64,000 bases of DNA from Flavobacteriales bacterium (GTDB lineage: Bacteria; Bacteroidota; Bacteroidia; Palsa-965), in assembly GCA_040377305.1 (NCBI GenBank), contig JBEIPA010000002.1, forward strand, positions 160,001 to 224,000, read 5' to 3'. Below are positions 15,654-55,470 of this stretch, one piece after another; the first letter of the stretch is position 1, and the number at the start of each line of letters is the position of its first letter. Made by a program: the position numbers and the translations under genes. The notes under the pieces are model-generated. The model ran no database searches. It saw only the letters and a list, made by a program, of their open reading frames with translations, and was not told the DNA's origin.

Positions 15654-18600
15654 CTATCTGTTCACCACCACTCTCTTCGTCAACTGCTGACCATCGTTCG
15701 TAACAACAGTCACCAAATAGATTCCGGCTGCTTCGAGTGACACAGGAGTTATTGCTCCCGCGTTCACTTGCTGGTCGATTACGAGTTGTCCTGCACCGTT
15801 GTAGATGAGCACCTGTACAGTTTCGTTACCGTCGATTGTGATGTTGAACTCACCGTTGTTCGGGTTCGGGTACATGTTGAAGTCGAATGCTACGATTGGT
15901 TCGAGAACGGTGAGACAAGGATCAACAAGGATGCTGTCTGTAACGATTCCGCCACAACCGTTTGTATCGGTGTACATGTATGTGATTTCGAATGTGCCGA
16001 TACCAGCGATCATCGGATCGAACGAGTTGCCGCTAACTGCAGGGCCGCTCCAGGTACCGCCTGCAGGTGACTCGCCACTCAACAGGATTGATCCCATATT
16101 GAGACATGCGGTATCAAGTACCAATGCGAGTGTTACTGTTGGAGGTGTGTGCAACACGAGATTGATCGTATCAGATGCGATACATCCACCAGGCATTGTC
16201 ACTTCAACGAAGTATGTTCCTGAAGTTGTAACAACATTCGTTTGACCCGTGCTCAGGTCATTCCAGATGTACGTACCGCCAACGTTCATTGCATCGAGTG
16301 TTACGGATGTTGCGCAAAGCGTATCATCAGTCCCAAGAGCAACAACCGGTTGCGTGTTAATCGTTACAACGACTGTATCAGAAGAAGTACATCCGTCGCT
16401 TGATGTAACATCGACCATGTACGTTCCGCTTACGGTAGCTGTGATCATTTGTGTTGTATCTGTAGTGTTCCACGCGTAAGTTGAACCAACGTTCTCTGCA
16501 TCCAGCAAGATCGTGCCACACTGCGTTGAATCAGGGCCCAGATCAACAACCGGATTTGGATTCACTGTTACGGTAGCCGTTGCCGTGTTTGAACATCCGT
16601 TGAGATCAGTTCCTGTTACCGTGTATGTATCAGTAATTGTTGGAGTAAACGGAACGCCGTCCACTACTCCACCCGTCCACAGGTAAGTTGCAGCACCGTT
16701 ACCATTCAGAATTACTGAAGTTCCTTCGCACACCGTGTATGCAGGAAAACCAGTAGTAGAAACGATTGGCAATGTATTTACTGCAACTGTGATTGTATCA
16801 GAATCGGTACAGCCATTTGAAGCCGTTCCGACAACTGTGTACGTTAATGTACCGAGCGGTGTAAACGGAACGTTGTTGTTCACGCCACCAGACCACGCAT
16901 AAGTAACAGCGCCACTACCACTGAGTGTAACATTGCTTCCATCACAAATGCTGGTTGCGCTTGCATTCGCAACAACCGTCGGAACTGCATTGATTGTAAC
17001 GTTCACTGCTGTTGCAGATGAATCGCTGCAACCACTTGCGTTCGTTACCCAAACGTTGTACACTCCAATTGTTGTTGCCGTGTACATTGCAGATGTTGCC
17101 CCGACAATCGGTGAACCGTTCATGAACCACTGGTATGCTGTTCCTGCAGATGAAGTAAGCACTGTGTTTCCACCCGAGCAGAATGTGCTGTTACCAGTGA
17201 TCGTTACAACAGGAGCTGCAATTACAGTGATATCCTGTGTAGTTGTGTCTGAACAACCATTGCCATCTGTTCCGATCACAGTATACGTTGTTGTAGCGGA
17301 TGCAGGGAATGCAACATTATCTGTTACACCATGCGACCATACATACGTTGCTGCACCAACGCCCCTCAGAGTAAGCTGGGCGTTTTCACAAACTGTATCG
17401 TTCGGAGAGAATGTGGTAGTTACAACAGGAAGTGTGTCTACTGTGATTATAACGTCAACAGTATCCTCACAGCCATTTCCGTCTGTCCCGATCAAAGTCA
17501 GCGTATCAGTTGTTAAGGGCGTGAAAGGATTTCCATCAATAACGCCATCGCTCCACGTGTAGGTAATTGCTCCTGTTCCATCGAGTGTAAGTTCTGTTCC
17601 GGTACAAACTGTAATGCCCGGAGCAGCGTTGTAACTAACCGTTGGTGAGGTGTTCACCGTTACCGTTGTTGTTGCAGTTGATGAACATCCGTTCGCGTCT
17701 GTTCCAGTTACGGTGTAAGTGTTCGTTGCAGCAGCTGTGAATGGAACGTTGTCCGTTACTCCACCAGTCCACACGTAAGTTACTGCACCGGTTCCGCTCA
17801 ATGTAACCTGCGTTCCTGAACATACAATTGGCGAAGGTGTCGTTGTGTTGCTCACCGTCGGAAGTGGATTAACAGTAACTGTTGTAGTTGCTGTTGCGGT
17901 ACATCCGTTCAATGCTGTTCCTGTAACTGTGTACGTCGTAGTTGCTGCCGGAACAAATGATACTCCGTCCATAACTCCACCTGTCCAGATATAAGACACA
18001 GCACCTGTTCCATTCAGAGTAACAGAAGTTCCTGCGCACACTGCACTCGAAGGAGCTGTTGTTGAAGAAACAGTTGGAGTAGGATTAACTGTGATGGTTG
18101 TTGTTGCCGTGTTCGTACATCCTGATGCATCAGTACCCGTTACTGTGTACGTGCTAGTTGATGTAGGCGTGAATGGAACTCCATTGATTACACCGCCCGT
18201 CCAGGTGTATGTTGCAGCACCTGTGCCACTCAACGTAACTGCAGTTCCGCTGCACACTGTTGTAGCAGGTGAAGCTGTTGATGCAACAGTTGGCAATGGA
18301 TTCACAACAACAGATACAGTTGCCGTGTTTGTACATCCACTGAAATCGGTGCCGGTTACAGTATATGTTGCTGTAGCAAGAGGAACAAATCCAACTCCAT
18401 CCGTAACACCGCAGCACCACGTGTAAGAAATTCCACCGATACCGTTCAATGCCACAGTTGATCCTGCGCAATGTGGACCAGCAGGAGATTGTACAGCATT
18501 GATATTCGGAGATGGATTAACTGTAACCGTAATTGTATTTGTTCCGGTACAACCGTTCATGTCGGTTCCTGTTATAGTGTACGTCGTAGTTGCAGAAGCA

Positions 18601-21600
18601 GCAAACGGAACTCCGTCTGTAACACCACCACTCCACGCATACGAAGAGCCGCCAAAACCGTTCAGAGTTACCATTGTTCCTGCACACACTGTTGCAGAAG
18701 GAGAAACACCAGTTGTAATTGTTGGCGCCGGATTAACTGTGATTGTTGTGGTCGCCGTATTGGTACATCCAACTGCGTCGGTGCCGGTTACGGTGTAGGT
18801 TTGAGTTGACGCAGGAATAAATGCAACTCCATCCGTCACACCTCCGCTCCACGTGTATGAAACACCACCAGTGCCATTCAGTGTGACTGCAGTTCCAGAA
18901 CAAACTGTTGTTGCCGGTGCCGCTGTTGAACTGATTGAAGGTGATGTACCAACAACAACAGTAATTGTTGCTGTACTGCTGCAACCGATTCCGTCTGTTC
19001 CAGTAACGGTATAAGTTTGTGTTGCTGCAGGTACAAATGCCAGACCGTCAGTAACTCCACCCGTCCAGGTATAAGTAATTGCACCACCACCCGTCAATGT
19101 TACCGGTGAGCCGTTACAAACAGTTGTTCCTGGAGAAGCATTTGCAGTTACCGTTGGAGCAGGATTAACTGTAACTGTTGCGGTTGCAGTTCCTGTACAT
19201 CCATTGCCATCTGTTCCAGTTACGGTGTATGTCTGTGTTGATGTCGCAGAGAATGCAACACCATCTGTAATTCCACCACTCCATGTGTAAGTTGTTGCTC
19301 CGTTTCCGCTTAGCGTAACCATAGTTCCGCTACATACGGGTCCAGAAGGTGAAGCCGTTGAACTTACCGTAGGGTTTGGATTTACCGTTATCGTGATCGT
19401 AGCTGTATTTGTACAACCAGAAGCATCTGTTCCATTTACAACGTAAGTAGTCGTTGAAGGCGGAACGAACGCAACACCATCAGTAACACCACCACTCCAC
19501 GTGTACGAAGTTGCACCGGTTCCATTGAGTGTTACACTGCTTCCATTACACACTACCGTTCCCGGAGTTGCGGTTGCGCCCACTGTTGGAAGTGGATTTA
19601 CGGTTACGAGAACTGTAGAAGTGTTTGTACAACCATTCACGTCTGTTCCCGTTACTGTGTACGTTGTTGTTGAAGGAGGTACAAAAGAAATTCCATCGGT
19701 AACTCCACCACTCCATGTGTAAGAAGCTGCACCTGTACCGTTTAATGTAACAGCACTACCACTACAAACTGTTGCAGAAGGAGCTGCCGAAGTTCCTACT
19801 GTTGGAGCAGGATTCACGGTAATCGTTACGGTAGAAGTTGCAGTGCATCCTGCTACGTTTGTTCCGGTAACCGTATATGTTGTTGTTGCCACTGGTGTAA
19901 ACGCAATTCCGTCTGTTACACCACCAGTCCATACGTACGATGAAGCACCGGTTCCGCTGAGCGTTACACTTTCTCCGTCGCAAACTGTTGTGCCCGGTGA
20001 AACTGTTAATCCAACGGTTGGAACCGGATCAACAGTGATTGTAACAGTAGCAGAATTCTGGCAGCCGTTGATATCGGTACCAGTAACAGTATATGAATCT
20101 GTTGTTGGAGGATTGAATGCAACTCCGTCCATTACGCCACCAGTCCATGAATATGTACTTGCTCCGCCTCCACTCAATGTAACTGCATCACCCTGACAAA
20201 TTGTTGTTCCTGGTGTAGCTGTAATTGTTACTGTTGGTGTAGGATTGACGTTGATCGTTACAGTTTCAGTATCGGTACAACCGTTAATGTCTGTCCCCGT
20301 TACTGTATAAGAAGTTGTAGCTGAAATTGTGAATGGTACTCCATCTACAACACCACCTGACCATGCGTAGCTTGATGCGCCTGTGCCGGTGAGGCTGATA
20401 ACGCTGCCTTCACATACTGTAGTTCCCGGAACTGTAACAATTGCAACCGTTGGTACCGGAATTACAGTTACAGAAGCAACCGCAGTATTTGTACATCCAA
20501 GTGCATCAGTTCCAGTGACCGTGTAATCTCCGCTTACCGCCGGAGTAAATGCAACTGCATCGAAAATTCCACCTGTCCAGTTGTAAGTCACTGCACCGCT
20601 ACCTGAAAGTGTAATCGGACTTCCCGCACAAATAGCAAGTGATGGAGCCGCGCTGAAGGAAACAGTTGGTGCCGGGTTTTCTATAAGTGTATGTCCGGTT
20701 GCGGCTGAGTCGGCACAACCTGATGGAGCAGAAACCATCACGTTATAAATTCCCGGAGCGATAGCTGCAATTGTTTGCGCATTTTCTCCACTGATCTGAA
20801 TTCCGTTGAGATACCACTGGTAAGTTGTGCCTACACTTGAGGTAAGCGTGGTGCTTCCACCCTGACAATAACTTCCTGCACCTGAAATTGAAACGACAGG
20901 GCGAGGATTCACAGTGATGGTAATCGTTGCGGTGCTCGTGCAACCACTCAGTAAATCAGTTCCTGTTACCGTGTATGTTGTGGTTGCCACAGGAGCAATA
21001 ATAACGTTCGCACCTGAGAATGAACCTGGCATCCACAAATAGGTGTCGGCACCTGAACCCATCAGCATGCTTGAAGATCCTTCGCAAATTGTTGTTGCGC
21101 TTGCCGAGGCGCTGAGTGACGGAGCGGGATTAACTGTTACCGAAGTATTCGCTGTTCCTGTACAGCCGTTAATATCTGTTCCTGTTACGGTGTAAGTAAC
21201 CGACGACATTGGATTATCAACAACACTTGCTCCACTGAAAGATCCCGGCATCCACAAATAAGTTGATGCACCGAAACCATCAAGTGTAGTTGGTTCTCCT
21301 GCACAAATTGTTGAAGGAGTTGAAGAAGCTGTAACAGTTGGTAATGAATTCACAGTAACCGTTGCCATTGCCTGTCCTGTGCAGCCGTTCACATCAGTGC
21401 CCGTAACAGTATAAGTTGTTGTTGACGTTGGAGCAACTGTAACTGGTGATCCGCTCAGGAAACCAGGGAACCAGAAATAAGAGCTTGCACCGGATGCTGA
21501 CAGAGAAGTATTATCTCCATCGCAAATTGAAACGGCATTTGGAGTAACAACAACTGTTGGCGCCGGATTAACGTTAACACTTACTGTTGCTGTTGCTGTA

Positions 21601-24600
21601 CAACCGGAGCCATCTGTTCCTGTAACGGTGTATGTAGTTGTGCTTCCTGGTGTATCTGTTACACTTGAACCGGAAAGTGATCCCGGCATCCAGGTGTAAG
21701 TTACTGCACCGAACGCATCGAGGAATACCATATCACCTGCGCAAATCGGATCGGGTGCTGCAGTAGCGGAAACAGAAGGAGCAGCAATAACGGTGATGCT
21801 CACCATATCAGTTGCAGTACAACCGGTCGCGTCTGTTCCGATCACGGTGTATGTCGTATTCGAAGTTGGATTGACAGTAATCGGACTTCCGGAAATTGCT
21901 CCGGGATTCCACACGTACGTTGTTGCGCCACTGCCTGTAAGTTGCACAGGTGCTCCAGAACATATTGTTGTGAAATCTGCAGTAGCGGTCACCGTTGGAC
22001 TTGGAGCAACGGTTGCTGTAACCATTGCTGTGTTCGTGCAACCATTCGCATCTGTTCCTGTTACAGTGTAAGTGGTGGTTGATCCGGGTGTGTCCGTTAC
22101 AGGATTTCCGGAAGTAAACATGGGTGCCCAAATGTAAGTGTCGGCACCTGTAGCAGTTAGTGTAACCATTTCGCCGCCGCAAACCGGATCTGGATTAGAT
22201 GTTGCAGCGACTGTTGGAAGTGGATTAACAGTTACTGTAACTGTTTCCGTTCCGATACAACCATCCGTAGAAGTTCCGGTAACTGTGTAGGTTTGAGTTG
22301 ACGCCGGATTTGCATCGGGGTTGTTTATTGTTGAAGATGACAAACCTGTTCCGGGAGACCACACGTATGTATTTGCTCCGCTTGCAACAACGTTAACTGG
22401 AGCGCCGCCCGCACACAGCGAAGGAGCTGCAGGTGCGAAAGAAAGAACCGGAGTTGGATTGATCACGCATGCAACTTCAGTTGAAGTAGCAGACAATCCA
22501 CTTACGGTGCAAGTCACAACGCATACGTAGTACATCGTGTTTGACAACGCAACTGTCGTGTAGGTATCTGATGTTGCACCAACAACGTTTGTGTACGGCC
22601 CGCCAGCAACAGTAGATTCCTGCCACTGATAGGTGAATGGAAATCCTGTGGAGTGTCCGTTCAGTTCGAGATCAAAAGTACTTCCTTCGCATTGTGCAGC
22701 AGGAGAAGTTGTGGATGCTGTTCCGGCAGTTGGTGTGCCTGAGCATACTGCAAGAATACCATCGAATTCATCAGCGCCGATATCCGGAGCAAGTGCGCCA
22801 CCGTTTACTGATCCTACCGGACCTGGACGAGTATCTGCATCCCAGTCTGCAGTGATTCCAACGACTGCAATGCCACCGCTTTCAAGCAATGAAGGGGCTG
22901 CGAAAGGAATGTGCAGGTAGTCTGCATCGTTTCCGTTTAGACTTGAGAATGTAGGGTTAACAGAAACAGATTGCGCATCACGAGCTGGACCAACGCGGGT
23001 TTGATACTGCGCGAGAGTCTGATCGGAATTTGTTCCGTCAAAGAAAATAAAGTTCGATGCAGATGGTACCCCGGCGTAAAAAGAGTTGTTATTTGAGGCT
23101 GCGTTGTAACTGATTAATGAAGTGGTTGTACGTGTGTGAGCTACAACAACACCGGTTCCTGTTTGGGAGGACAAATTCACAACCAGATTATTCCGAAGCG
23201 TTACATCAGGACCAGTTGCAATGCGAATTCCGGATGACCCGGAGTTTGTTCCTCCCGCGATGTTTGCCAGGTATATGGTGTTGTAGGAAATTTCTAATGC
23301 CGTCCCTGCAACTACATTCAATCCCATCACAGCATCGTTCCCATTTGTGAGACCTGCACGTATATCTCCTACATAGTTGTTATAAATGTTGAGCGATGCG
23401 CAGTTAGTAATGTTGATTCCGGTAGCAACTCCGGTCGCGTTAGTATGTTCTAAATCGTAAATTTTATTGTCGTGAATTTCACTTGTGAGTCCGCTGAATA
23501 TTCCATAAATCCCGCAAGTAGGAGAAGCTCCGTTACCTACACCATTCAAGTCGTAAATTGTATTATTGTGAACATTAAAAGGCCCATTGCAATTAAAATC
23601 CATACCGATCGCTCCCAGCGTGAGGCTGGATGTTGATGCATTTCCAACAATATTATTCGCCAACTCGAAAGATGTAAACGCTGGAGCACCCGAGAACAGC
23701 ATGAGTGTCATTAAACCCGTACTCGTCACGCCTGTGATTGAGTTGCTGAACGCAGTTTGATTCCCTGAATTTCCGATCTGATATCGAATTCCAATAAAAC
23801 TATTCGCGCTGATGTTTAAAATCGTGTTACTTGAAACGTTGGTCCCGCTTCCGGAGTTGTTGATATCAATACCAACAACTGATAATCCTCCGCTCCAGTT
23901 CGACATCGTGTTACTCACAATGGTTCTGCTTACTGCCCCTGTTGCAGCACCACCGGTTTCTGTAATTCCATTAATTGTACCTCCTGCAACGGTGATATTG
24001 GAAAAAATATTATCCTGAATTGTTCTTGTCGCACCAATGGCAGACGCCCCGGTTCCCGCTATGCACGTAACTGAACCACCTGCACCTGTTTTTGAAAGAG
24101 CGCCGATAATAGCGTTGTTCGTTATATTAACAAAGCTGGATGCTCCGCCCGCAATTGTGTTGTTGATCAGGTTAACAGCCCCCGTTGTGTTGAGGGTTAG
24201 GTTGTCGAACGTGTTATTATTTATGAAATTGAAATTCATCGCACCGATATGCCGGATCAAGTCGACGGCCGACGATGACGAGGTATTAAAAATAAATCCG
24301 TGAAATGTATTTCCGCTAATTGCTACGCCCGCTCCGGCAGATCCAGAAGGACTTGAGGATATCCCTAAAACAAGACCCGTACTCGCCGAGGTAAAGGTGA
24401 TAGCATTGTTTATTGAATTACCGAGTTGATTGTCGTTAAGCATTGAATTGCCGCTGATAACAGCATTACACTGAATACCCGTAAATCCACCGGAAGGTGA
24501 TGCACTGGTATTATTGAGGATTTGGTTATTTCTAATTAGAAAAGAACTTAACGTTCCTCCAATGTTAATTCCCAGCAATCTTGATGTCGTTCCGGCATTA

Positions 24601-25655
24601 GTGACAGCGCAATTCTGAATAATATTTGAGTCTACAACCAGTGCTTCAAACGAGGATGAACTGGAATGATTAATTGCCTCGAACGTTCCACTTACCGCTG
24701 AGGAAGTCATGCTTATCGTGTTACCACAAATTCTATTCGTGCATCCTGAAGTTGGACTGGAAGTGGAGTAATTTTCAAAAATACCCCGAAACGCTACGGT
24801 CGGATTGACCGTAGTGGAAAGAGAATTGCCACGCACTGCAAAATTCATTTGATGATTCATGAAAATGCAATAACTCGTTCCGGTATTTGAAAAATATCCA
24901 CTTGCAGCGGCAGCACCTCCCCAGTTTGTAATCGTATTTCCCATGGTTCCGGAACCGATGATATTATTCTGGTCCATCATTCCGGGCGCACCGATGAACG
25001 CGATTCCCATGTTCACATTGCTGATAATATTCTGAACGATCGTATTAGCGGAGTTGGCTCCGGCAACCGATGACGCATCATTAACTACTGTAATACTTGT
25101 TGGACTATGACGGGAGTTACTATACACACCCCAGGTGTTTGTGTAGTTACGATTCAGGCTGATCGTGTTTGACATAATGACACAATTCTGCGCGCCGTCA
25201 GTCGGACTTGCATGAAGCAGAGCCACGCCCCACTCGGTCATATTATTACTAGCCGGAGTTGTATTCGCATTCGCTGGATTCTCCTGCATGATATACCCTT
25301 GAATACCGATATAATCAGATCCAATGATTTTGAAAATTCCATCATTCAGTGCCCCTGGTGTTAATGACCCCGAAGCCGTGATCGTATTTCCGCTTCCTGA
25401 AATCACAACCGGATTCGCTGCACTACTCGTGTTCGTAGTGATCTGATATCCTCCTGCTGGGGCAGTCTCCGGGAAACCGGCAAGATGTATAAAGAATACT
25501 CCACCAGGCCCAACACCAACTGTATTCAAATCTGTGATCGCGGTAGCAAGTGTCGGATAGTCGCCCGGGATTAATTTAATTCCCGTTAACTGTGCAGAAA
25601 TTTTTCCGCTAAATCCAATAACTGATAACAACAGGAGTAGTGCTGCTTTTTTCAT
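15654..25655 (-). CDS. giant T9SS type A surface protein: beta-helix head plus about 31 Cys-paired Ig-like repeats
   Basis: Signal peptide; about 950 aa of Asn/Ile-rich parallel beta-helix ending in PDIGADEF; about 72-aa repeats (PTV...C.G..V.L.G.GA..Y.W...YTVTGTD.NGC...V.VNP); CTD MYPNPNNG...GIYLV...KRVVVNR. Confidence 0.9.
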   Translation of the reverse strand: MKKAALLLLLSVIGFSGKISAQLTGIKLIPGDYPTLATAITDLNTVGVGPGGVFFIHLAGFPETAPAGGYQITTNTSSAANPVVISGSGNTITASGSLTPGALNDGIFKIIGSDYIGIQGYIMQENPANANTTPASNNMTEWGVALLHASPTDGAQNCVIMSNTISLNRNYTNTWGVYSNSRHSPTSITVVNDASSVAGANSANTIVQNIISNVNMGIAFIGAPGMMDQNNIIGSGTMGNTITNWGGAAAASGYFSNTGTSYCIFMNHQMNFAVRGNSLSTTVNPTVAFRGIFENYSTSSPTSGCTNRICGNTISMTSSAVSGTFEAINHSSSSSFEALVVDSNIIQNCAVTNAGTTSRLLGINIGGTLSSFLIRNNQILNNTSASPSGGFTGIQCNAVISGNSMLNDNQLGNSINNAITFTSASTGLVLGISSSPSGSAGAGVAISGNTFHGFIFNTSSSSAVDLIRHIGAMNFNFINNNTFDNLTLNTTGAVNLINNTIAGGASSFVNITNNAIIGALSKTGAGGSVTCIAGTGASAIGATRTIQDNIFSNITVAGGTINGITETGGAATGAVSRTIVSNTMSNWSGGLSVVGIDINNSGSGTNVSSNTILNISANSFIGIRYQIGNSGNQTAFSNSITGVTSTGLMTLMLFSGAPAFTSFELANNIVGNASTSSLTLGAIGMDFNCNGPFNVHNNTIYDLNGVGNGASPTCGIYGIFSGLTSEIHDNKIYDLEHTNATGVATGINITNCASLNIYNNYVGDIRAGLTNGNDAVMGLNVVAGTALEISYNTIYLANIAGGTNSGSSGIRIATGPDVTLRNNLVVNLSSQTGTGVVVAHTRTTTSLISYNAASNNNSFYAGVPSASNFIFFDGTNSDQTLAQYQTRVGPARDAQSVSVNPTFSSLNGNDADYLHIPFAAPSLLESGGIAVVGITADWDADTRPGPVGSVNGGALAPDIGADEFDGILAVCSGTPTAGTASTTSPAAQCEGSTFDLELNGHSTGFPFTYQWQESTVAGGPYTNVVGATSDTYTTVALSNTMYYVCVVTCTVSGLSATSTEVACVINPTPVLSFAPAAPSLCAGGAPVNVVASGANTYVWSPGTGLSSSTINNPDANPASTQTYTVTGTSTDGCIGTETVTVTVNPLPTVAATSNPDPVCGGEMVTLTATGADTYIWAPMFTSGNPVTDTPGSTTTYTVTGTDANGCTNTAMVTATVAPSPTVTATADFTTICSGAPVQLTGSGATTYVWNPGAISGSPITVNPTSNTTYTVIGTDATGCTATDMVSITVIAAPSVSATAAPDPICAGDMVFLDAFGAVTYTWMPGSLSGSSVTDTPGSTTTYTVTGTDGSGCTATATVSVNVNPAPTVVVTPNAVSICDGDNTSLSASGASSYFWFPGFLSGSPVTVAPTSTTTYTVTGTDVNGCTGQAMATVTVNSLPTVTASSTPSTICAGEPTTLDGFGASTYLWMPGSFSGASVVDNPMSSVTYTVTGTDINGCTGTANTSVTVNPAPSLSASASATTICEGSSSMLMGSGADTYLWMPGSFSGANVIIAPVATTTYTVTGTDLLSGCTSTATITITVNPRPVVSISGAGSYCQGGSTTLTSSVGTTYQWYLNGIQISGENAQTIAAIAPGIYNVMVSAPSGCADSAATGHTLIENPAPTVSFSAAPSLAICAGSPITLSGSGAVTYNWTGGIFDAVAFTPAVSGDYTVTGTDALGCTNTAVASVTVIPVPTVAIVTVPGTTVCEGSVISLTGTGASSYAWSGGVVDGVPFTISATTSYTVTGTDINGCTDTETVTINVNPTPTVTITATPGTTICQGDAVTLSGGGASTYSWTGGVMDGVAFNPPTTDSYTVTGTDINGCQNSATVTITVDPVPTVGLTVSPGTTVCDGESVTLSGTGASSYVWTGGVTDGIAFTPVATTTYTVTGTNVAGCTATSTVTITVNPAPTVGTSAAPSATVCSGSAVTLNGTGAASYTWSGGVTDGISFVPPSTTTYTVTGTDVNGCTNTSTVLVTVNPLPTVGATATPGTVVCNGSSVTLNGTGATSYTWSGGVTDGVAFVPPSTTTYVVNGTDASGCTNTATITITVNPNPTVSSTASPSGPVCSGTMVTLSGNGATTYTWSGGITDGVAFSATSTQTYTVTGTDGNGCTGTATATVTVNPAPTVTANASPGTTVCNGSPVTLTGGGAITYTWTGGVTDGLAFVPAATQTYTVTGTDGIGCSSTATITVVVGTSPSISSTAAPATTVCSGTAVTLNGTGGVSYTWSGGVTDGVAFIPASTQTYTVTGTDAVGCTNTATTTITVNPAPTITTGVSPSATVCAGTMVTLNGFGGSSYAWSGGVTDGVPFAASATTTYTITGTDMNGCTGTNTITVTVNPSPNINAVQSPAGPHCAGSTVALNGIGGISYTWCCGVTDGVGFVPLATATYTVTGTDFSGCTNTATVSVVVNPLPTVASTASPATTVCSGTAVTLSGTGAATYTWTGGVINGVPFTPTSTSTYTVTGTDASGCTNTATTTITVNPTPTVSSTTAPSSAVCAGTSVTLNGTGAVSYIWTGGVMDGVSFVPAATTTYTVTGTALNGCTATATTTVTVNPLPTVSNTTTPSPIVCSGTQVTLSGTGAVTYVWTGGVTDNVPFTAAATNTYTVTGTDANGCSSTATTTVTVNTSPTVSYNAAPGITVCTGTELTLDGTGAITYTWSDGVIDGNPFTPLTTDTLTLIGTDGNGCEDTVDVIITVDTLPVVTTTFSPNDTVCENAQLTLRGVGAATYVWSHGVTDNVAFPASATTTYTVIGTDGNGCSDTTTQDITVIAAPVVTITGNSTFCSGGNTVLTSSAGTAYQWFMNGSPIVGATSAMYTATTIGVYNVWVTNASGCSDSSATAVNVTINAVPTVVANASATSICDGSNVTLSGSGAVTYAWSGGVNNNVPFTPLGTLTYTVVGTASNGCTDSDTITVAVNTLPIVSTTGFPAYTVCEGTSVILNGNGAATYLWTGGVVDGVPFTPTITDTYTVTGTDLNGCSNTATATVTVNPNPVVDLGPDSTQCGTILLDAENVGSTYAWNTTDTTQMITATVSGTYMVDVTSSDGCTSSDTVVVTINTQPVVALGTDDTLCATSVTLDAMNVGGTYIWNDLSTGQTNVVTTSGTYFVEVTMPGGCIASDTINLVLHTPPTVTLALVLDTACLNMGSILLSGESPAGGTWSGPAVSGNSFDPMIAGIGTFEITYMYTDTNGCGGIVTDSILVDPCLTVLEPIVAFDFNMYPNPNNGEFNITIDGNETVQVLIYNGAGQLVIDQQVNAGAITPVSLEAAGIYLVTVVTNDGQQLTKRVVVNR

Positions 25656-25823
25656 CGACGATAAGGTTAATCTGTATAGGGGCTAGAGGTCCTTGAATCT
25701 CAATTTTTCAAGGACAACGAAAATCGGAAATTTCGGGCGTTTTTCCTTGCAAAATGTACAAGTACAACCCTTGAATTTGGGCGTAATTCGAAGGTTTTCG
25801 GTAACCTGCTTCGGGCAGAATGC

Positions 25824-25858
25824 AAAAAAATCCCGACTCCATTAAGAGTCGGGATTTT
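25824..25858 (-). terminator. intrinsic terminator of the 2-kaa gene
   Basis: AAAATCCCGACTC/GAGTCGGGATTTT perfect stem with A7. Confidence 0.85.
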
Positions 25859-25877
25859 CAATTCATTAATGCCGGAA

Positions 25878-28800
25878 CTAACGGTTCACGACCACACGTT
25901 GTGTAGTGCGTGTTCCATCAGCAGTAACAACTACTACGCTGTACATACCAGAAGCTTCGATGTGAACATTGTTCTGAACACCGCAAGTTGCTTTCTGAGC
26001 AATTACAAGCTGACCAGTTGCACTGTATACATACACATCAACCAATCCTGAACCAGCAGGGATCAATGTGAAGTCACCGTTGTTAGGGTTAGGATATACA
26101 ACTGCACTTCCAACTTCGTTGTTGTCGATGCTGTTGCAGATGTCAACCAACATGCTGTCAATTGCAGCTGCCGAACATCCAGTAAGTGAATCCATGTACG
26201 TGTAAGTGATTGCATGCATACCGTTACCAGCTACACCCGGATCGAATGTATTTCCAGTTACACCAGTACCTGACCAAGTACCACCTGCAGGTGATTCACC
26301 ACCAAGTGTTACAGGTCCGAGCAACAGACAAGCTGTGTCAAGCGGCAACGATACAGTTACGTTAGGAAGTGCGTTTGCAGTGATTGCAAGTGATGCAGTA
26401 TCCATACAACCGTTAGCATCTGTTCCTGTAACGATGAACGTCATAGAACCAGTAGTTGTGTAAGGAACCATATCAGTTACACCATTATCCCAAGTGTAAG
26501 TAGTTGCACCACCACCCATGAATGTGATCTGATCACCAACGCAAACTGTAGAGTCCGTTGAAGATGCAGTTACAACCGGAAGTGGGTTAACTGTTAATGT
26601 AACAGTAGTCGTTGCAGAACATCCGTTAACGTCTGTACCAGTTACAGTGTATGTTTCTGTTGCGGCTGCAGGGAATGCAACGCCATCAGTAACACTTCCA
26701 GACCAAACATAAGTTGAAGCACCGCTTCCTGCAGGAGTTACTAAGTCACCAACGCAAGCTGTTGACGGAGTAACCGAAGCAGCAACGGTAGGAAGTGCAT
26801 TCACTGTTACTGTTACTGTAGCTGTGTTAGAACATCCGTTCGCGTCTGTTCCTGTTACTGTATAGGTATCAGTCACCGTTGCAGCGAATGGCACTGCATC
26901 AGTAAGACCACCGCTCCAAGCGTACGATGAAGCTCCACCACCAGCAGGAGTAACCATATCACCAGCACAAACTGTTGACGGAGTTGCAGAAGCTGTTACT
27001 GTTGGCAATGCATTTACCGTTACCAGTGCAGTAGCTGTGTTTGTACAACCGTTTGCATCAGTACCTGTAACAGTATAAGTTGTTGTAGACATTGCAGCGA
27101 ATGCAACGTTGTCCATAATTCCACCTGACCAAGCATAGCTCGTAGCACCACCACCTGTTGCAGTTACCATATCACCTGCGCACACCGTTGAAGGTGTTGC
27201 AGATGCAGTTACTGTAGGCAATGCGTTAACTGTTACCGTTGCAGTTGCAGTGTTCGAACATCCGTTACCGTCTGTTCCTGTTACAGTGTAAGTCTGTGTT
27301 GACAGTGCACTGAATGCAACACCGTCTGTAAGACCTCCACTCCAAACATAAGTTGAAGCACCACCGCCTGTCGGAGTTACCATATCACCTGCGCACACTG
27401 TAGAAGGTGCAGCTGTTGCAGTTACTGTAGGCAGAGGGTTAACTGTAAGCGTTGTGCTAGCTGAAGCAGAACAACCTGAAGTTCCTGTAACAATAACAGA
27501 GTAAGTTGTTGTAGTCGTCACAGCAGAAGCTACCGGGTCGGAAACGATCGTTGAATTCAGGAACGTTGCAGGTGACCAAGCGTATGTGAAAGCATCTACA
27601 CCACCAACAATTGTGATGATATAGTCTTCTGTTTCACCAAAAGTTGATTGAGCCAAGCAAGGATCCATGTCATTTGTACCTCCATGATCCACGTCGCGTA
27701 CACGCAGGCGTGTAGTACCGTTAACTGCATTCACAGGAACTGTGAAAACAAACGATGTTGATGCAGGCGCAGCTCCGAGGTCATCTGTTTCCCCGAGTTT
27801 TTCGCCGGCATTATTCAGCGTTCCGTTCTGGTTATAATCGATCCACGCAGCTACGTCATTGATAGTGTATGTACCAGCTACCAATGTAATCGTGTAAGTT
27901 GAACCAGCTGTAAGCGTCGTTGTGGTGTTCGCTGCTTGCGGGTACAACGTATAATATGGAGCTGTTGAAGGACCAGTTGGGTTGTTCAAAGTATTAACAA
28001 CAACACTGCTGATATAATCCCCGAAACCTGTTCCGTTAGAGTATACCGGCTGACAATAAGTAAGAACCGGAGCAGCTACTACAGAAAGTGTAGATGTTCC
28101 ATTCTCGCAGATGGTAGCAGGGCTCGCAGATGCAGTAGGCACTGGCGTATCACCGTAGTTAACGAGTGTTGTCGCTGTGCTTGTACATCCGTTGCCATCT
28201 GTACCTGTAACCGTGTAAGTTGTAGTTACTGTAGGTGAAGCTGTAACTGTTGATCCTGTTGTAGACGACAAGCCAGCTGCAGGCCCCCACGTGTATCCGG
28301 TTGATGTACCAGAAGCAGAGATTGCAACACCAGGTCCACCTGAACAGAACAATGCAGAAGTTGGAGACACCGTAAGTGTTGGTGCCGCGTTAACAGCTAA
28401 CGTAAGTGTTACTGTGTTAGTTGCAGCGCAAGCATCTGTAATCACCAACGTATATGTACCAGCTTCAGCCGGAGTTACACCGTTAATAGTCGGGTTCTGA
28501 ACTGTTGATGAGAAACTGTTCGGTCCGGTCCACGCATAAGTATACGGAGCTCCACCACCAACAGGTACAGAGTTCAACGTTACGTTAGTACCCTGACAAA
28601 CAGTTGATGCAGGTGAAATGCTGCCACTCGAGGTAAGCACAGAACCTGTAGTTACAGTTACTGTAGCAGGTGATCCCGGACAACCGCCTGAACTTGGAGT
28701 CACTGTCCATGTAGTCGTTGCCGAAACGTTGTTTGCCATTGGATTCGCAATAGTTGTACTGCTAAGGAAAGTTGCAGGTGACCATGCGTATGTTACAGCT

Positions 28801-31800
28801 GGAGGAGTGAAGGTATAGATTCGTCCACTTGCAGGAGTTGCAATCTGTGCATCGTTCGGTGTAACAATGCTTGCGGTGTTAGAACTCATTGTAACACTTT
28901 GGTAATTCGCAGCCGAAGCAGTTGCGCCAACTGAAGTAGTGCCTGTGTTTGAACCCATAGTTCCATAACGGAATTCGAACACTCCTGAAGTTTCATACAT
29001 CCAACATTGGAATGTAGAGTTTGCAGGTCCGCCAACTGCGCGAGGTACTGTAACAAACCACTGCACCACCAAAATACGGTTAGGTGCTGTTCCTGTTACC
29101 ACATAACTAACGTTTCCGTCTGTTCCTGTCGCAAGGTCATCCCAATAAGGATAAATTTTCGGGATGTTAGTTGTGCTTGTTACAGCGTTTGTGAATTGAT
29201 TTGCAGCCGTTGCGCCACCGAGTAAAATCCAACCATCAGGCGATACAGAGAACTGTGTGTAGTTTGTACCGTTGAATGGGAATGTGAATCCGATTGCAGT
29301 TGGTGCCGCAGTTGGTGTGTCATCGTTACCCGGATTCAGTACCTGAGTTGCTCCCGACATTGGGTCGAGCGTTGCACCAGTTGCTGTACTGAATGAATAC
29401 TGATTCAAAGGAGCACTTGGCGTTGCAACCGCGTTCAGTTGAGAGTTGCCGTTAAGACATATGCTTGCCGGGTTAGCGGTAGCCGTTGTTGCTGAAGGAG
29501 CATAACCAACTGTAACCGTTGTTGTAGCAGAAGCAGTACATCCGATTCCGTCTGTTCCTACCACCGTATATGTTTGGCTGGTCGTCGGACTCGCTGTTAC
29601 ACTAGTTCCGGTAGTTGCGCTAAGACCTGTTGAAGGAGCCCAGTTGTATGACACTGAAGATCCGGACGCAGTCAAGGAAACACCTGGTCCAGGTGTACAG
29701 TACGTAGTTGAAGTAGGAGTAACACTAATTGTTGGTGCCGGGTTAACAGTTAATGTAACGTTAACTGTGAACGTCGAACTACAAGCGTCTGTAACCACAA
29801 CTGTGTAAGTTCCCGCTTCAGCTGGAGTAACACTTGCTACCGCAGGGTTCTGTGATGTAGATGAGAAACTGTTAGGACCAGTCCAAGCATAGGTGTAAGG
29901 TGCGCCGCCGCCTGTTGGAATAACACCAAGAGTTACGCTAGTACCTTGACAAACAGTCGAAGAAGGAGCTATGCTTCCAGTAGCGGTAAGAGCTGCACCT
30001 GCAGTGATAGTCACAGTGCCGGTTGTTGAACATGTACCAGCCGTTGCAGTTACCGTGTAAGTAATGGAAGACGCGATACCTGTTGCCATTGGATTGGCAA
30101 TGTTTGTTGCACTGAGGTAAGTTGCCGGAGCCCAGCTATAAGTAAGTGCTGGTGGTGTAGAATAAATAGCGTTGTATGTTCCGATAGTCTGTGGTGCAAT
30201 CACACTTGATGCTGTCCAGTCACCACCTATGTTGTTATCAACAGGTGCAGTACGAATTGTACCAGCAAAACCAGATGGAGAAGATGCGAAACCTGTCCAA
30301 TTAGCCGCTGTTACACCAGTAGCAGCGTTGAATGTATAACCACTGTTTAAGCCTACTGCATCAACAATAGTAGAACCATTTCTAAGTACAATCCCAACAA
30401 GTGAACCAGAGCCCCAGCTATCAGAAGTACCGCCTGTATTGAAATAACGGTTTGCAATGTCGTTTACACCAGTACCCAAACAAACAACACTTACTCCATT
30501 GGCTGGAATAATCGTTCCAACCGGGAAAGTGAAAGTAGGGTGAGTAGATGTTGCCGAATTTGATGCGTAATCATTAAGCGTATAACCGCTAATATCAATT
30601 GGATTTGAAGAAATATTCGAAATTTCAACTAAATCACCTCCTGTAATATAAGCCGGGTAAGAAACCGTTTGACCCGTTCCTGTGCGGAATAAAGTAACCT
30701 CGGTGATTAAAATTGAAGGCATATTTGCAACAACGTTCAATTGAGAGTTACCACCTACACAAACGTTCGAAGGTGTTGCAGTTACAGCGGTAATCGTTGG
30801 AGTAATAGCCACGGTAATTGTGGTAGTAGCAGTGCCTGTACAGCCATTGCCATCAGTTCCTGTTACTGTGTACGTAGTCGTTGCACTTGGCGACGCATTA
30901 ACGCTAGCGCCTGTAGTTGCTGAAAGTCCAGCTGCTGGTCCCCATGAATAGGTAGTTGCACCTGAAGCTGTAAGAGCAACAGCAGGGTCTCCTTGACACA
31001 TTGTCGCTGAAGTTGGAATTACGCTAACCGAAGCTGGAGGGAATACAGCTGCGGTCACTTCGTTCGTCGTAGCAGAAGAACCACTGTTCGTACATGTTAC
31101 AACACAAACATAATATGTCGTAGATGAAACTGTTCCTGTTGTAAATGTTGGATTAGTTGCGCCGGGCTCGTTCGAGTAAGGACCTCCCGGTACTGCTGAA
31201 GACTGCCACTGATAAGTGATTCCAGGACCAAAGTCATTACCAGTCAGAGACAAGTTGAAAACTCCTGATCCACAAATTGAGACTGGCGAACCAACTGCTG
31301 TTCCAGGGTTTGGTGTACCAGAACATGCCGGAAGCGGCGTCATGATTAGCGTTATGTTGGGACGGCTTGCACTAAGAGTTCCGTTGCCAGTTGGTGCTGA
31401 TCCGTCTGCCTGCCACGTTTGAGTACAACCTGCTACACCATTAGAAAAGCGAAACTGCTTTGCAGTGCTTCCTTCACCACCGGATCCACCGAAGTTGGCT
31501 TCCACAATAATTTCAAGATTGGAAGCATTGTTATAAAGGAAAGGTGCAGTAAGTGTTACGTTGACCCAGGTACCCGCAACAAGCATCGCAGATGTGATGT
31601 TTCCGCTGTAAACCAGCGTAGCGCCAGCTTCCTGAACAGCAACCGTAGAAGCTACCATCGACGCAGAAGCAGTTTGCTTCATGTAGATGTTAATCGGGGT
31701 GCTTGCCGCAGGAGTGGCAACAGTGTTTAAGAAAAAAGCTACATCAGTAATCGTTCCTGAACTGCCAATTTCTGCAGCAGTGTAAATTGCAGCTGTACGC

Positions 31801-31958
31801 TCAAAACCAAAAAAGCACCCGTAAGGTTTACGGTTGTTTGCTGTGTTTGTGTTCGCTGCAGGTATCGTCACCGTTTGCGCCCAGACGCTCGTGACAAGAA
31901 GAGTCGCACCAATTACGGTCAATGCCTTCCTCCACGCGTTCGTAAATAATTTTGTCAT
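25878..31958 (-). CDS. large T9SS type A surface protein with Ig repeats and lamin-tail-like, NIDO-like and GEVED domains
   Basis: Start at MTKLFTN (31958). Motifs: ILITEV...DLVEISN.S..PIDISGY.L (lamin-tail), FTFPFNG..Y...IYPYWDDL (NIDO-like), WIDYNQNG...TRLRV...GETEDY (GEVED) and CTD VYPNPNNG...RVVVNR. Confidence 0.88.
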   Translation of the reverse strand: MTKLFTNAWRKALTVIGATLLVTSVWAQTVTIPAANTNTANNRKPYGCFFGFERTAAIYTAAEIGSSGTITDVAFFLNTVATPAASTPINIYMKQTASASMVASTVAVQEAGATLVYSGNITSAMLVAGTWVNVTLTAPFLYNNASNLEIIVEANFGGSGGEGSTAKQFRFSNGVAGCTQTWQADGSAPTGNGTLSASRPNITLIMTPLPACSGTPNPGTAVGSPVSICGSGVFNLSLTGNDFGPGITYQWQSSAVPGGPYSNEPGATNPTFTTGTVSSTTYYVCVVTCTNSGSSATTNEVTAAVFPPASVSVIPTSATMCQGDPAVALTASGATTYSWGPAAGLSATTGASVNASPSATTTYTVTGTDGNGCTGTATTTITVAITPTITAVTATPSNVCVGGNSQLNVVANMPSILITEVTLFRTGTGQTVSYPAYITGGDLVEISNISSNPIDISGYTLNDYASNSATSTHPTFTFPVGTIIPANGVSVVCLGTGVNDIANRYFNTGGTSDSWGSGSLVGIVLRNGSTIVDAVGLNSGYTFNAATGVTAANWTGFASSPSGFAGTIRTAPVDNNIGGDWTASSVIAPQTIGTYNAIYSTPPALTYSWAPATYLSATNIANPMATGIASSITYTVTATAGTCSTTGTVTITAGAALTATGSIAPSSTVCQGTSVTLGVIPTGGGAPYTYAWTGPNSFSSTSQNPAVASVTPAEAGTYTVVVTDACSSTFTVNVTLTVNPAPTISVTPTSTTYCTPGPGVSLTASGSSVSYNWAPSTGLSATTGTSVTASPTTSQTYTVVGTDGIGCTASATTTVTVGYAPSATTATANPASICLNGNSQLNAVATPSAPLNQYSFSTATGATLDPMSGATQVLNPGNDDTPTAAPTAIGFTFPFNGTNYTQFSVSPDGWILLGGATAANQFTNAVTSTTNIPKIYPYWDDLATGTDGNVSYVVTGTAPNRILVVQWFVTVPRAVGGPANSTFQCWMYETSGVFEFRYGTMGSNTGTTSVGATASAANYQSVTMSSNTASIVTPNDAQIATPASGRIYTFTPPAVTYAWSPATFLSSTTIANPMANNVSATTTWTVTPSSGGCPGSPATVTVTTGSVLTSSGSISPASTVCQGTNVTLNSVPVGGGAPYTYAWTGPNSFSSTVQNPTINGVTPAEAGTYTLVITDACAATNTVTLTLAVNAAPTLTVSPTSALFCSGGPGVAISASGTSTGYTWGPAAGLSSTTGSTVTASPTVTTTYTVTGTDGNGCTSTATTLVNYGDTPVPTASASPATICENGTSTLSVVAAPVLTYCQPVYSNGTGFGDYISSVVVNTLNNPTGPSTAPYYTLYPQAANTTTTLTAGSTYTITLVAGTYTINDVAAWIDYNQNGTLNNAGEKLGETDDLGAAPASTSFVFTVPVNAVNGTTRLRVRDVDHGGTNDMDPCLAQSTFGETEDYIITIVGGVDAFTYAWSPATFLNSTIVSDPVASAVTTTTTYSVIVTGTSGCSASASTTLTVNPLPTVTATAAPSTVCAGDMVTPTGGGASTYVWSGGLTDGVAFSALSTQTYTVTGTDGNGCSNTATATVTVNALPTVTASATPSTVCAGDMVTATGGGATSYAWSGGIMDNVAFAAMSTTTYTVTGTDANGCTNTATALVTVNALPTVTASATPSTVCAGDMVTPAGGGASSYAWSGGLTDAVPFAATVTDTYTVTGTDANGCSNTATVTVTVNALPTVAASVTPSTACVGDLVTPAGSGASTYVWSGSVTDGVAFPAAATETYTVTGTDVNGCSATTTVTLTVNPLPVVTASSTDSTVCVGDQITFMGGGATTYTWDNGVTDMVPYTTTGSMTFIVTGTDANGCMDTASLAITANALPNVTVSLPLDTACLLLGPVTLGGESPAGGTWSGTGVTGNTFDPGVAGNGMHAITYTYMDSLTGCSAAAIDSMLVDICNSIDNNEVGSAVVYPNPNNGDFTLIPAGSGLVDVYVYSATGQLVIAQKATCGVQNNVHIEASGMYSVVVVTADGTRTTQRVVVNR

Positions 31959-32124
31959 GTTATGTGTGTTTGATTTGTGGGTTAAACATCCCATTTTCAG
32001 GGGAAGGCAAATATCGTCAATTCAATCCCTATTTTGGCGAAAAAAATCGTCGAAATGCCGAAACCATCGGTTGAATGGCGAATTCGCGTTGTTAAAGACG
32101 TTCTCAAATGTTAAAATCCTGTAA

Positions 32125-32943: not shown

Positions 32944-35049
32944 TTATCGGATTAGTACGTTAATTAATGTCATGTCGTCTGTCTGTTCCATTCCTGCTTT
33001 CCACACGTCCAGTGTTTTGGAAAACAAATGCTGTCTTTCACTAATAGGCAGATTCGTGGAAGTATTCACAAGTTCTTTGAGTCTCTTGGTCATAAACTTC
33101 TTGCGCTCCGGACCACCGAACTGATCTGTAACGCCATCCGAGAACAAGAAGACGCTCATTGGACTATCGACCTGAAATGAATGATCAATGTACGGTGCAT
33201 TCTTAGGAAGTGAAGAACCGATTGAAATTTTATCAGGTTGTAACACAGTTAAATTTCCATTCACGACAATGAAAACAGGTCGGTCTGCAGAGGCGATGAC
33301 TATTTCCTTCTTAGCTGGATCAAACATCAATACCGCGATGTCCATACCGTCGCTTACCTGACGTGTATCTTTTGTTGCGTTCAATGTAGTGAGCAACTCA
33401 TCATGTAAAGCGTCAAGAATTTTCCCGGGACTTGTAATACTCTTCCGCACAATTAAACGATTTAGAATGGATGATCCCAGCATACTCATCATGGCGCCGG
33501 GAACACCGTGTCCTGTGCAATCTGCAACCGCGAGAAATCGCATTCCTCCTCTACCCTCTGCTACCCAGTAAAAATCGCCGCTGATAATATCACGTGGACG
33601 ATAGTAAATGAAATTATCAGGAAACAGTGCGTTTATTTTTTCCGGTGTTGGTAATACTGCATTCTGAATCCGGAGCGCATAACTTATCGAATCAGTGATC
33701 TCTTCATTCTTCGTTTCAATAATTGCCTTCTGCTCTTCAATGGCTTCATTCTGCTCTTGCAATAATTGATTGTCGCGCTTCTTTCGGTAATAATTGCGAA
33801 CCACGAAAGCGGAAAAAATCAGAAGCACGATTACTACGCCAATGATTGCCCACTTCACAATTTGATCACGTTCACGTTGCGCGGCTTGTGCTTTATTGTC
33901 GGCTTCCAGCAGTTCTATTTTCGCCTGATTCTCCTGCGCTTTATACTTCTCCGCAGCATCATCCGCCGCTTTCGTTTTTTCACTATCGAAAATTACCTGG
34001 CGTAAGGAGTCCGTGATGCGGTAGTAAAATGCGGAATTCTCATAATTGCCTTCCGCATAATACGATTCTGCCAAACGGTGCGACGACATTTGTGCATAGA
34101 AATCATTATGCTGACCGACCGCTAAATCATAAACGCGCAATGCGCATAACTGTTCCTGCTTTCTATCGCCCAGAGCACCGTACAATTCACTCATCGTTGC
34201 TAATGCGGTCATGGTACTATATGCGCTGGTTCGCGCTTCAGCCAGGCTCAATGATTTCTCCAGATAAATTTTCGCCAACTCGTATTGCCTGGTGTGCATC
34301 AATGTGCTTCCAAGGTTATTATAACAAGTAATCAAACGACTGGTGTCTTTCATCGCTTCGAAAATTCCCAAAGCCTTCAGTTGGTACTGGTAGGCAGAAT
34401 CCCACAACTCCATATTGCTATAATACAATCCGATATTATCTGTAGTAAGTGCAATGCCGCCTGTGTCATTCAACTTTGTGTAGAACATCAAGGCCTCCTG
34501 TGTTCGCTCAATGGCTTTATCAAAGTCAGTAGTGTAGAAATAGACCAATGCCCACTGCGAATGTAGTATTGCCAACGTCGATGTATCACCAATGGATTTC
34601 GCGAGTTCAATTCCTGCGAGAAAAACAGCCGTTGCCTCGTCGTACAATCCAACACGCGTAAGCAGGACGCCTTTTGCACTGAGAACTTCACCTTCCCATT
34701 CCTTCAGGCCCACATTGTGCGCAACAACAAGTGCCGAATCGATCTGCATCATTGCCGAATCGTTTTCGCCATCGAACCGATACTGCCGGTTCAGATTCAT
34801 GCGCTCCTGAATTTCGGCAGTGTCAATTTCGTGCTCAATGCTCAGGCGAATTGCCGCTTTTAGAAGTTGTACACATAATGCCGGATCAGTTTTGCGCAGA
34901 CTGTACGCGACTGAATCCACAGCATCAATCTGCTGTTTTGGAGAAAGACCCTGAATGATGGCAGCGTACTCCTTTGGAAGCGATTGCGCAAAACACTCCA
35001 CCGAAAAAATCAGGGAAACAAAGAGTAAAAGGCAAAGAGAACGTTGCAT
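32944..35049 (-). CDS. membrane sensor phosphatase: periplasmic TPR + TM + SpoIIE/PP2C domain
   Basis: Signal peptide, TPR helices, TM; SGDFY, ADCTGHGVPGA, DGMD, SDGVTDQFGG and QTDD motifs. Confidence 0.9.
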   Translation of the reverse strand: MQRSLCLLLFVSLIFSVECFAQSLPKEYAAIIQGLSPKQQIDAVDSVAYSLRKTDPALCVQLLKAAIRLSIEHEIDTAEIQERMNLNRQYRFDGENDSAMMQIDSALVVAHNVGLKEWEGEVLSAKGVLLTRVGLYDEATAVFLAGIELAKSIGDTSTLAILHSQWALVYFYTTDFDKAIERTQEALMFYTKLNDTGGIALTTDNIGLYYSNMELWDSAYQYQLKALGIFEAMKDTSRLITCYNNLGSTLMHTRQYELAKIYLEKSLSLAEARTSAYSTMTALATMSELYGALGDRKQEQLCALRVYDLAVGQHNDFYAQMSSHRLAESYYAEGNYENSAFYYRITDSLRQVIFDSEKTKAADDAAEKYKAQENQAKIELLEADNKAQAAQRERDQIVKWAIIGVVIVLLIFSAFVVRNYYRKKRDNQLLQEQNEAIEEQKAIIETKNEEITDSISYALRIQNAVLPTPEKINALFPDNFIYYRPRDIISGDFYWVAEGRGGMRFLAVADCTGHGVPGAMMSMLGSSILNRLIVRKSITSPGKILDALHDELLTTLNATKDTRQVSDGMDIAVLMFDPAKKEIVIASADRPVFIVVNGNLTVLQPDKISIGSSLPKNAPYIDHSFQVDSPMSVFLFSDGVTDQFGGPERKKFMTKRLKELVNTSTNLPISERQHLFSKTLDVWKAGMEQTDDMTLINVLIR

Positions 35050-35147
35050 AATGGGTTTGATAAGCAAAGTTACAATTTACTCAGGTGCTGAAAACAGGAT
35101 CTCAATTGCTGGTAAATTGTAGTTTTGCACGATACAATTTCAAATCA

Positions 35148-50871: not shown

Positions 50872-50999
50872 TTTGGGCGCTTATTGAGCCAACGAAGATA
50901 GCAGTGTGGTGTATATCCTCCAATTGGACTTTGGTTATTTTGGCATAATATCTGACTGTATAATGATCGAACAGTGAAAAAGATTCATTAAATTACAGT

Positions 51000-51512: not shown

Positions 51513-51526
51513 CGGAATAGATCATC

Positions 51527-53500: not shown

Positions 53501-53502
53501 AC

Positions 53503-55392: not shown

Positions 55393-55470
55393 AATTCCGA
55401 TTACTTACCTCTAAAATTAGTTGGTTTCGTGGTGAAAACAAATGGTTAAATTGGCAACATAAATCTCTAT

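Follow-up and report, generated by a model that had tools for sequence, protein, structure and literature searches.

The window analysed here, a 64,000-nucleotide stretch of a Flavobacteriales bacterium contig (JBEIPA010000002.1, positions 160,001 to 224,000), encodes on its minus strand a 2038-amino-acid (aa) protein whose stalk consists of tandem immunoglobulin (Ig)-like repeats. An original prediction, made from the letters of the window, had proposed that this protein carries three unrelated domains inserted at the same loop of three homologous repeats, hereafter sockets, and all motifs quoted there trace to this single open reading frame (ORF). The repeats are 71-84 aa long and share two cysteines (Cys1, close to the beginning, and Cys2) and a YxW motif, with a Cys1-to-YxW spacing of 12-19 residues in the intact repeats and of 175-223 in the three split ones. 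The layout of the gene, with A and B denoting the intact repeats that flank the sockets, is as follows.

25878..31994 (-): host gene, a type IX secretion system (T9SS) substrate of type A; 2038 aa from the first ATG, 2026 aa (the database form) from a likelier ATG at 31958
31878..31958 (-): likely Sec signal peptide, judged by eye (basic N-region, hydrophobic core, end ...VWA-Q)
31329..31877 (-): N-terminal tip head, a remote relative of the 'class 4' inserts that other sockets contain (hmmsearch with the class-4 profile, E=1.4e-8)
31038..31328 (-): first Ig-like repeat, with an extra Cys (aa 224) ahead of it
30804..31037 (-): A repeat 1 (GLSATTG), intact; Pfam Ig_7
30723..30803 (-): socket 1 N-half, strands A, A' and B; Cys412
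30147..30722 (-): insert 1, lamin-tail domain (LTD, PF00932), aa 425-616; poorly modelled
29991..30146 (-): socket 1 C-half, starting at TYSW; Cys655
29739..29990 (-): B repeat 1 (GPNSFSS), intact
29502..29738 (-): A repeat 2, intact
29421..29501 (-): socket 2 N-half; Cys846
28797..29420 (-): insert 2, NIDO-like domain, aa 859-1066; homologous to RemA residues 22-228
28638..28796 (-): socket 2 C-half; Cys1105
28386..28637 (-): B repeat 2, intact; 73% identity with B repeat 1
28152..28385 (-): A repeat 3 (GLSSTTG), intact
28071..28151 (-): socket 3 N-half; Cys1296
27591..28070 (-): insert 3, GEVED domain, aa 1309-1468, with two Cys of its own (1314, 1446)
27432..27590 (-): socket 3 C-half; Cys1508
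26130..27431 (-): proximal stalk, five intact 71-aa repeats and a last one with an additional Cys at its end (aa 1953)
25881..26099 (-): T9SS type A sorting domain (PF18962; TIGR04183 above cut-off)
25824..25860 (-), coordinates approximate: stable hairpin and U run after the stop, within 25815-25880, a likely terminator before the 3333-aa gene (z=-5.4; missed by the consensus scan)

When joined, the socket halves align over their full length with the intact repeats (17-42% identity in the comparisons made) and are 38-49% identical to one another, around inserts that are mutually unrelated (best blastp E=0.98); the proposed breakage of three homologous repeats at the same loop is thus borne out, and the insert limits first given lie within about 11 nt of those found here. 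The proposed higher-order unit of A repeat, socket and B repeat holds twice, but the last unit comprises A repeat and socket only, its A repeat reading GLSSTTG and no B repeat following. Uninterrupted sockets had likewise been claimed for two further proteins of the window, of 1094 and 3333 aa: their repeats do possess socket-like C-halves, but the N-halves score -18.5 and -3.0, lower than 12.7, the 5th percentile of true sockets, and judged by sequence they are relatives of the socket rather than strict empty sockets.

To examine the split repeats in three dimensions, we used AlphaFold2 models of aa 832-1521, covering socket 2, B repeat 2, A repeat 3 and socket 3 (31 homologues; predicted local distance difference test score, pLDDT, 85.4; predicted template modelling score, pTM, 0.50), and of aa 320-752 around socket 1 (11 homologues; pLDDT 69.6, with a poor LTD part), judging the folding of the halves from the first and last aligned residues of structural alignments rather than from coordinates. 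Two-Ig crystal chains span residues 2-372 of the first model with up to 164 residues aligned (8bw0_C, Z 9.9, root-mean-square deviation 4.5), whereas the C-half of socket 2 and the next repeat could supply only 137, and four-Ig chains align 312-316 residues over positions 1-690. In the socket 1 model, chains of the two-Ig type begin at residue 79-80, where the N-half starts, and align 160-162 residues versus 136 possible without that half. Since more residues are aligned than the C-half and the next repeat offer, each of the three sockets is predicted to form a whole Ig domain whose strand B is followed by the insert. Thus, in the sequence as in the predicted models, an Ig-like domain is interrupted by a complete other domain and then finished. 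The top eight Foldseek matches are all fragments of GhpA; these fold searches were filled by Ig matches and address the repeats rather than the folds of the inserts.

The discontinuous Ig domain originally predicted is therefore recovered in the models at three sites, but the cysteine pair expected to close it more probably acts between domains. All 95 repeats that lack Cys1 retain Cys2, which disfavors closure of the split Ig by an intradomain bond. Repeats without Cys1 but with Cys2 make up 35 of the 46 that stand right before the sorting domain, compared with 60 of 4742 internal repeats (kin are not independent in these counts), and the protein studied here has a spare cysteine both before its first repeat (aa 224) and after its last (aa 1953). 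Among sockets, Cys2 is kept in 249 of 249 checked and the upstream partner cysteine in 245; a direct co-loss test over adjacent repeats was weak, with only 3 losses to draw on. In GhpA, a disulfide between nearby domains, Cys2988-Cys3140, is described (bioRxiv 10.1101/2024.01.29.577165), and through sequence-match coordinates it maps approximately to Cys1(n)-Cys2(n+1). We infer that Cys1 of one repeat bonds Cys2, in the F-G turn, of the next as a staple between domains, in which case two disulfides (333-655 and 412-738 for socket 1) would span each insert.

The identities first proposed for the three inserts have held up. Insert 1 is lamin-tail-like (Pfam LTD, E=7.4e-10) and insert 3 passes the Pfam cut-off for GEVED (E=1.5e-16). 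Insert 2 has no Pfam match of its own, NIDO (PF06119) included, and is NIDO-like through its clustering with an insert of the homologue P0097 that passes the NIDO cut-off (E=6.2e-7); it matches residues 22-228 of RemA (PDB 8GL6 chain D) with E=1.9e-20, and NIDO is carried by 14% of the members of its neighbor cluster in the Atlas. The lectin activity of RemA was reportedly assigned, in 2012, to domains other than this homologue. Searched by sequence against the PDB, inserts 1 and 3, the N-terminal head and one insert each of class 4 and of an unnamed, 'MAM-looking' class gave nothing significant, and the N-terminal tip head has no Pfam match either. The GEVED insert measures ~160 aa and contains two cysteines, of which length Pfam PF20009 spans only the last ~80 aa, the C-terminal half; its natural boundary is set by the socket edges.

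Socket inserts in relatives were counted in 120 homologues from a search with the three-socket region (biased to these inserts), 120 longer proteins from a search with the scaffold only and 64 loci, with the protein studied included and relatives not dereplicated. This yielded 279 sockets in 110 proteins, 60 of them in 18 proteins of the scaffold-only set, with NIDO-like (150), GEVED (79), LTD (28), proprotein-convertase P (9), 'MAM-looking' (6), class 4 (4) and LamG (3) inserts in 40 orders and 1-8 sockets per protein; the order LTD-NIDO-GEVED occurs once in the 110, in the protein studied here. Homologues thus carry alternative inserts in these slots, as had been anticipated. Before counting, 6 of 197 rows were dropped for length or quality together with 2 judged to be missed repeats, as were 89 of 149 rows of the scaffold-only set (one judged a missed repeat) and locus rows that were exact duplicates or at least 99% identical to a counted insert. 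Seemingly missing sockets in P0025, P0043 and P0046 proved to be parser misses, and P0173 carries an LTD by the precomputed Pfam list, so the socket counts are lower bounds.

When 401 genomes of the class were searched with a profile free of inserts (a tally that includes the unpublished genomes G012, G115 and G196, on which no other claim depends), 282 matched, mostly probably through ordinary intact repeats; the 28 loci followed up held 24 sockets, all with inserts of the classes already seen. The 81 best socket-type C-halves comprise 48 in intact repeats, 29 in split repeats and 4 others, and among the 4012 intact repeats of homologues a single one is socket-like in both halves, with one more clear empty socket at locus L127. 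The 53-aa socket half had no match at E<=0.001 among shorter proteins. The named relatives are Bacteroidota, and instead of arbitrary cargo the sockets draw on a restricted repertoire of some 7-8 head families of Bacteroidota. Outside sockets, the NIDO-like head is also seen as a free tip, at the N-terminus of RemA and of 34 of 242 proteins. Many further T9SS proteins in this genome bear these heads, the NIDO-like domain being present in 13 ORFs.

Further split repeats lie elsewhere in the same genome. A 1772-aa T9SS protein (L084, G000:C35:12633-17948(+)) has a class-4 head at ~aa 1005 in a split repeat; L085 (G000:C38:9986-11713(-)) has a split repeat with an unnamed 165-aa insert, relatives of which sit near the N-terminus of two other ORFs; and at L086 two adjacent large proteins (G000:C43:50701-55905(+) and 56109-67517(+)) have a first repeat apparently split by a NIDO-like domain. 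SprB repeats are confirmed in the first of these (50701-55905(+)), so the socket may extend to SprB-like proteins. Finally, the socket proteins P0021, P0097, P0139 and P0172, with up to 8 sockets, match a dockerin-like family at the C-terminus, whereas their Pfam matches include no T9SS tail, and are possibly anchored differently.

Comparison of close homologues reveals that the projected domain varies and is swapped. P0074, with an LTD, and P0109, with a NIDO-like domain, show, in blocks of 20 residues, 70-100% identity as far as aa 960 and again beyond aa 1160, compared with 10-40% across the insert (961-1160), the break falling exactly at the loop edges. The pairs P0053/P0045 (82-99% identity outside about 781-1220) and P0025/P0104 (difference confined to about 1361-1720) exchanged longer tracts, consisting of the socket and neighboring repeats. 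A tree of the sockets alone (FastTree, about 75 columns, low resolution) has 45 changes of insert class, versus 114 with shuffled labels and a minimum of 6, and the socket C-half subtypes vary by insert class. Socket and insert therefore appear usually to move together, with repeated exchange. A comparison of four sequencing runs revealed no junction at which exactly one insert is skipped or replaced, although runs X2-X4 offer short low-depth pieces, so that this proves nothing; a contig of run X1 covers the whole gene without differences, and since X1 may be the source of this DNA the agreement is not independent.

As for composition, the low GC content of insert 1 had been offered as a pointer. 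It amounts to 0.418 (60-nt lines range from 0.28 to 0.52) in a scaffold of ~0.48; the amino-acid make-up alone predicts 0.452 and accounts for about half of the dip, and GC at third codon positions is the same as in the native C-terminal (proximal) stalk (0.245 vs 0.242). Together these rule out GC as a mark of foreign origin.

The genome encodes the T9SS translocon gene SprA (above cut-off), and the scan of the flanks gives a short-chain dehydrogenase/reductase (SDR) and an NAD-synthase gene. The 3333-aa T9SS neighbor (15654-25655(-)) has no socket; over its N-terminal 971 aa it shares 45% identity with the one gene, a socket-bearing one, that occupies the corresponding locus of the same-genus genome G008, which suggests duplication or reshuffling at the locus. 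The 1094-aa T9SS protein (46431-49715(+)) consists of a Kelch propeller followed by a short stalk of the same repeats, and two genes upstream of the host gene lies a 707-aa tetratricopeptide repeat protein with a SiaA-like phosphatase stretch (32944-35067(-)).

We propose, with a probability of roughly 0.75, that the gene encodes a secreted surface fiber, a chain of Ig repeats from which three side arms project, each probably with a surface ligand of its own. Such a three-armed fiber is suggested by the prediction that the two halves come back together as one Ig, and relatives with other domains in the same slots make a branched adhesion fiber likely; the branched fiber with exchangeable side-arm domains of the original prediction is thereby supported. 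The protein would pass the inner membrane by Sec export, judging from a signal peptide seen by eye, and be secreted by the T9SS, for which the tail and SprA are both present. On the predicted structures, strands A, A' and B would pair with strands C-G while the insert emerges at the domain's top, out of the B-C loop, giving one tip head and three side heads on a semi-rigid fiber that would be stapled by disulfides, two of which would carry tension past each insert. The heads may bind ligands, as the homology to RemA and the precedent of RTX adhesins suggest, and would serve multivalent attachment along the fiber. Homologous recombination, within neighboring repeats or the conserved halves of the sockets, could renew the heads, a plausible mechanism for swaps that are seen at the protein level, and may draw on a pool of heads that also form free N-terminal tips.

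Several observations weigh against this proposal. The models have pTM values of 0.50-0.54, only two of the five for the socket 1 construct exceed pLDDT 66, and the LTD insert there lies mostly below pLDDT 60. Five of the eight repeats without Cys2 still have a cysteine at the upstream partner position, for example in P0031/P0032, and in one RNA run the gene is covered by scattered short pieces only. The same-genus genomes G008 and G023, which speak for exchange in that they encode a NIDO-NIDO-'MAM-looking' protein between the same SDR and NAD-synthase genes, have a single gene there against two in this genome, and the loci are therefore not clean one-to-one orthologs. The socket mostly travels with its insert, so most spread reflects duplication of socket and insert together rather than fresh plugging. 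Furthermore, we know of no ligand for any of the three heads, LTD, NIDO-like or GEVED. Finally, GEVED has been treated as a stalk-type partner of an adhesive domain (PMC10952558).

This last point bears on an unlikely alternative, in which the fiber is branched and its side domains are structural or scaffolding elements, for self-association into a mesh or sheath or for tethering substrate and secreted enzymes, and bind nothing on a host or other surface. The stalk-type handling of GEVED, the heptamers formed by the stalk homologue GhpA (bioRxiv 10.1101/2024.01.29.577165) and the presence of the same heads on many other T9SS proteins of the genome, 13 ORFs for the NIDO-like domain, would fit such a role; set against it are the exchange of heads between close homologues on an unchanged stalk, which the ligand-binding regions of RTX adhesins also show, the homology of insert 2 to part of a gliding adhesin and the membership of other inserts in the LamG/concanavalin and P-domain families. 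Rather improbable is a history of tolerated insertions, whereby a head fell into a permissive loop and tandem duplication and gene conversion between repeats spread and reshuffled the units without selection for exchangeability: insert class does track the socket tree, C-half subtypes do differ by insert class and socket-type C-halves are common in intact repeats (48 of the 81 top matches), but at least seven unrelated head families occupy the same loop, the strict socket is almost never empty in the homologues (1 of 4012) and one swap breaks at the loop edges. A plain string of beads, with the halves belonging to the insert or to neighboring domains, is scarcely credible: the structures are indeed predictions judged without a direct look at coordinates, but the joined halves align full-length with intact repeats, both models yield complete Ig domains and both halves are kept around unrelated inserts in 279 cases.

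A bolder form of the adhesion-fiber proposal is possible, though we consider it doubtful: a dedicated Bacteroidota plug-in socket, a specialized repeat subtype whose B-C loop takes at least seven unrelated head folds and which is spanned on either side by disulfides between domains that keep load off the passenger, passes the T9SS pore folded and branched and is reloaded by recombination from a genome-wide pool of tip domains. If true, it would amount to a class-wide diversification system for surface fibers and a ready T9SS scaffold for multidomain display. Beyond this, a branched substrate is a natural probe of the folded-cargo width that the T9SS pore accepts, and the predicted double disulfide bypass offers a possible answer to how a split stalk domain withstands tension.

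Among known systems, the stalk matches the grappling-hook protein GhpA of Aureispira by sequence (E=3e-121 summed over 20 stretches), with which it shares homologous Ig-like repeats (PDB 9FLP and others), the status of T9SS substrate and, as we propose here, disulfides between nearby domains. GhpA is a 5898-aa heptamer with an N-terminal hook, and split repeats are not mentioned in the accessible text of its description (bioRxiv 10.1101/2024.01.29.577165); the GhpA-type hook has a heptameric stem, type B anchoring and PorP/PorE neighbors, whereas the present protein has a type A tail and SDR and NAD-synthase flanks. RemA of Flavobacterium johnsoniae is a T9SS gliding adhesin (PMC10994853) in which the domain homologous to insert 2 is a free N-terminal head, whereas here it sits inside a socket. 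Insert 3 resembles the GEVED domains of CshA/B in passing the PF20009 cut-off, but those stand in tandem after the adhesive NR2 domain near the adhesin tips, and the word 'inserted' is absent from the main text of that report (PMC10952558).

The closest parallel is found in the type I-secreted RTX adhesins AhLap, FrhA and MpIBP, where Ig-like split domains project ligand-binding domains (PMC12077191; bioRxiv 10.1101/2025.09.30.679566) and single heads are swapped between near-identical adhesins (bioRxiv 10.1101/2025.09.30.679566). There as here, the chain starts an Ig-like stalk domain, leaves it to form an entire projecting domain and then comes back to complete it, with several split domains per protein, intact extenders between them and heads that are swapped; the principle, swaps included, is thus already published for RTX adhesins under the name of split domains. 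Bacteroid, type IX and T9SS do not occur in the main text of bioRxiv 10.1101/2025.09.30.679566, and our literature search did not find the architecture described in T9SS proteins, although the main split-domain survey (Graham et al. 2024, Proteins 92:933) lay outside that search and may cover such cases. No RTX family is among the Pfam or NCBIfam matches of the protein, which uses the T9SS with a C-terminal type A tail where RTX adhesins use the type I system with a β-roll; its host domain is a Cys-bearing CHU/PKD-like repeat; in both models its insert leaves after strand B, whereas RTX heads leave after the first strand or before the last two; and its family of heads comprises NIDO-like, GEVED, LTD and P-domains instead of carbohydrate-binding, vWFA, peptide-binding and RTX-roll domains. 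The protein appears to function as split-domain adhesins do, without belonging to the RTX adhesins. New elements are the T9SS host repeat, the choice of loop, the range of heads and the predicted insert-bypassing disulfides. The comparison extends from RTX adhesins to T9SS proteins the rule that a split domain marks a binding domain, by which the NIDO-like domain, the bacterial LTD, the full-length GEVED and two unnamed classes become candidate ligand-binding modules, now with their true boundaries given.

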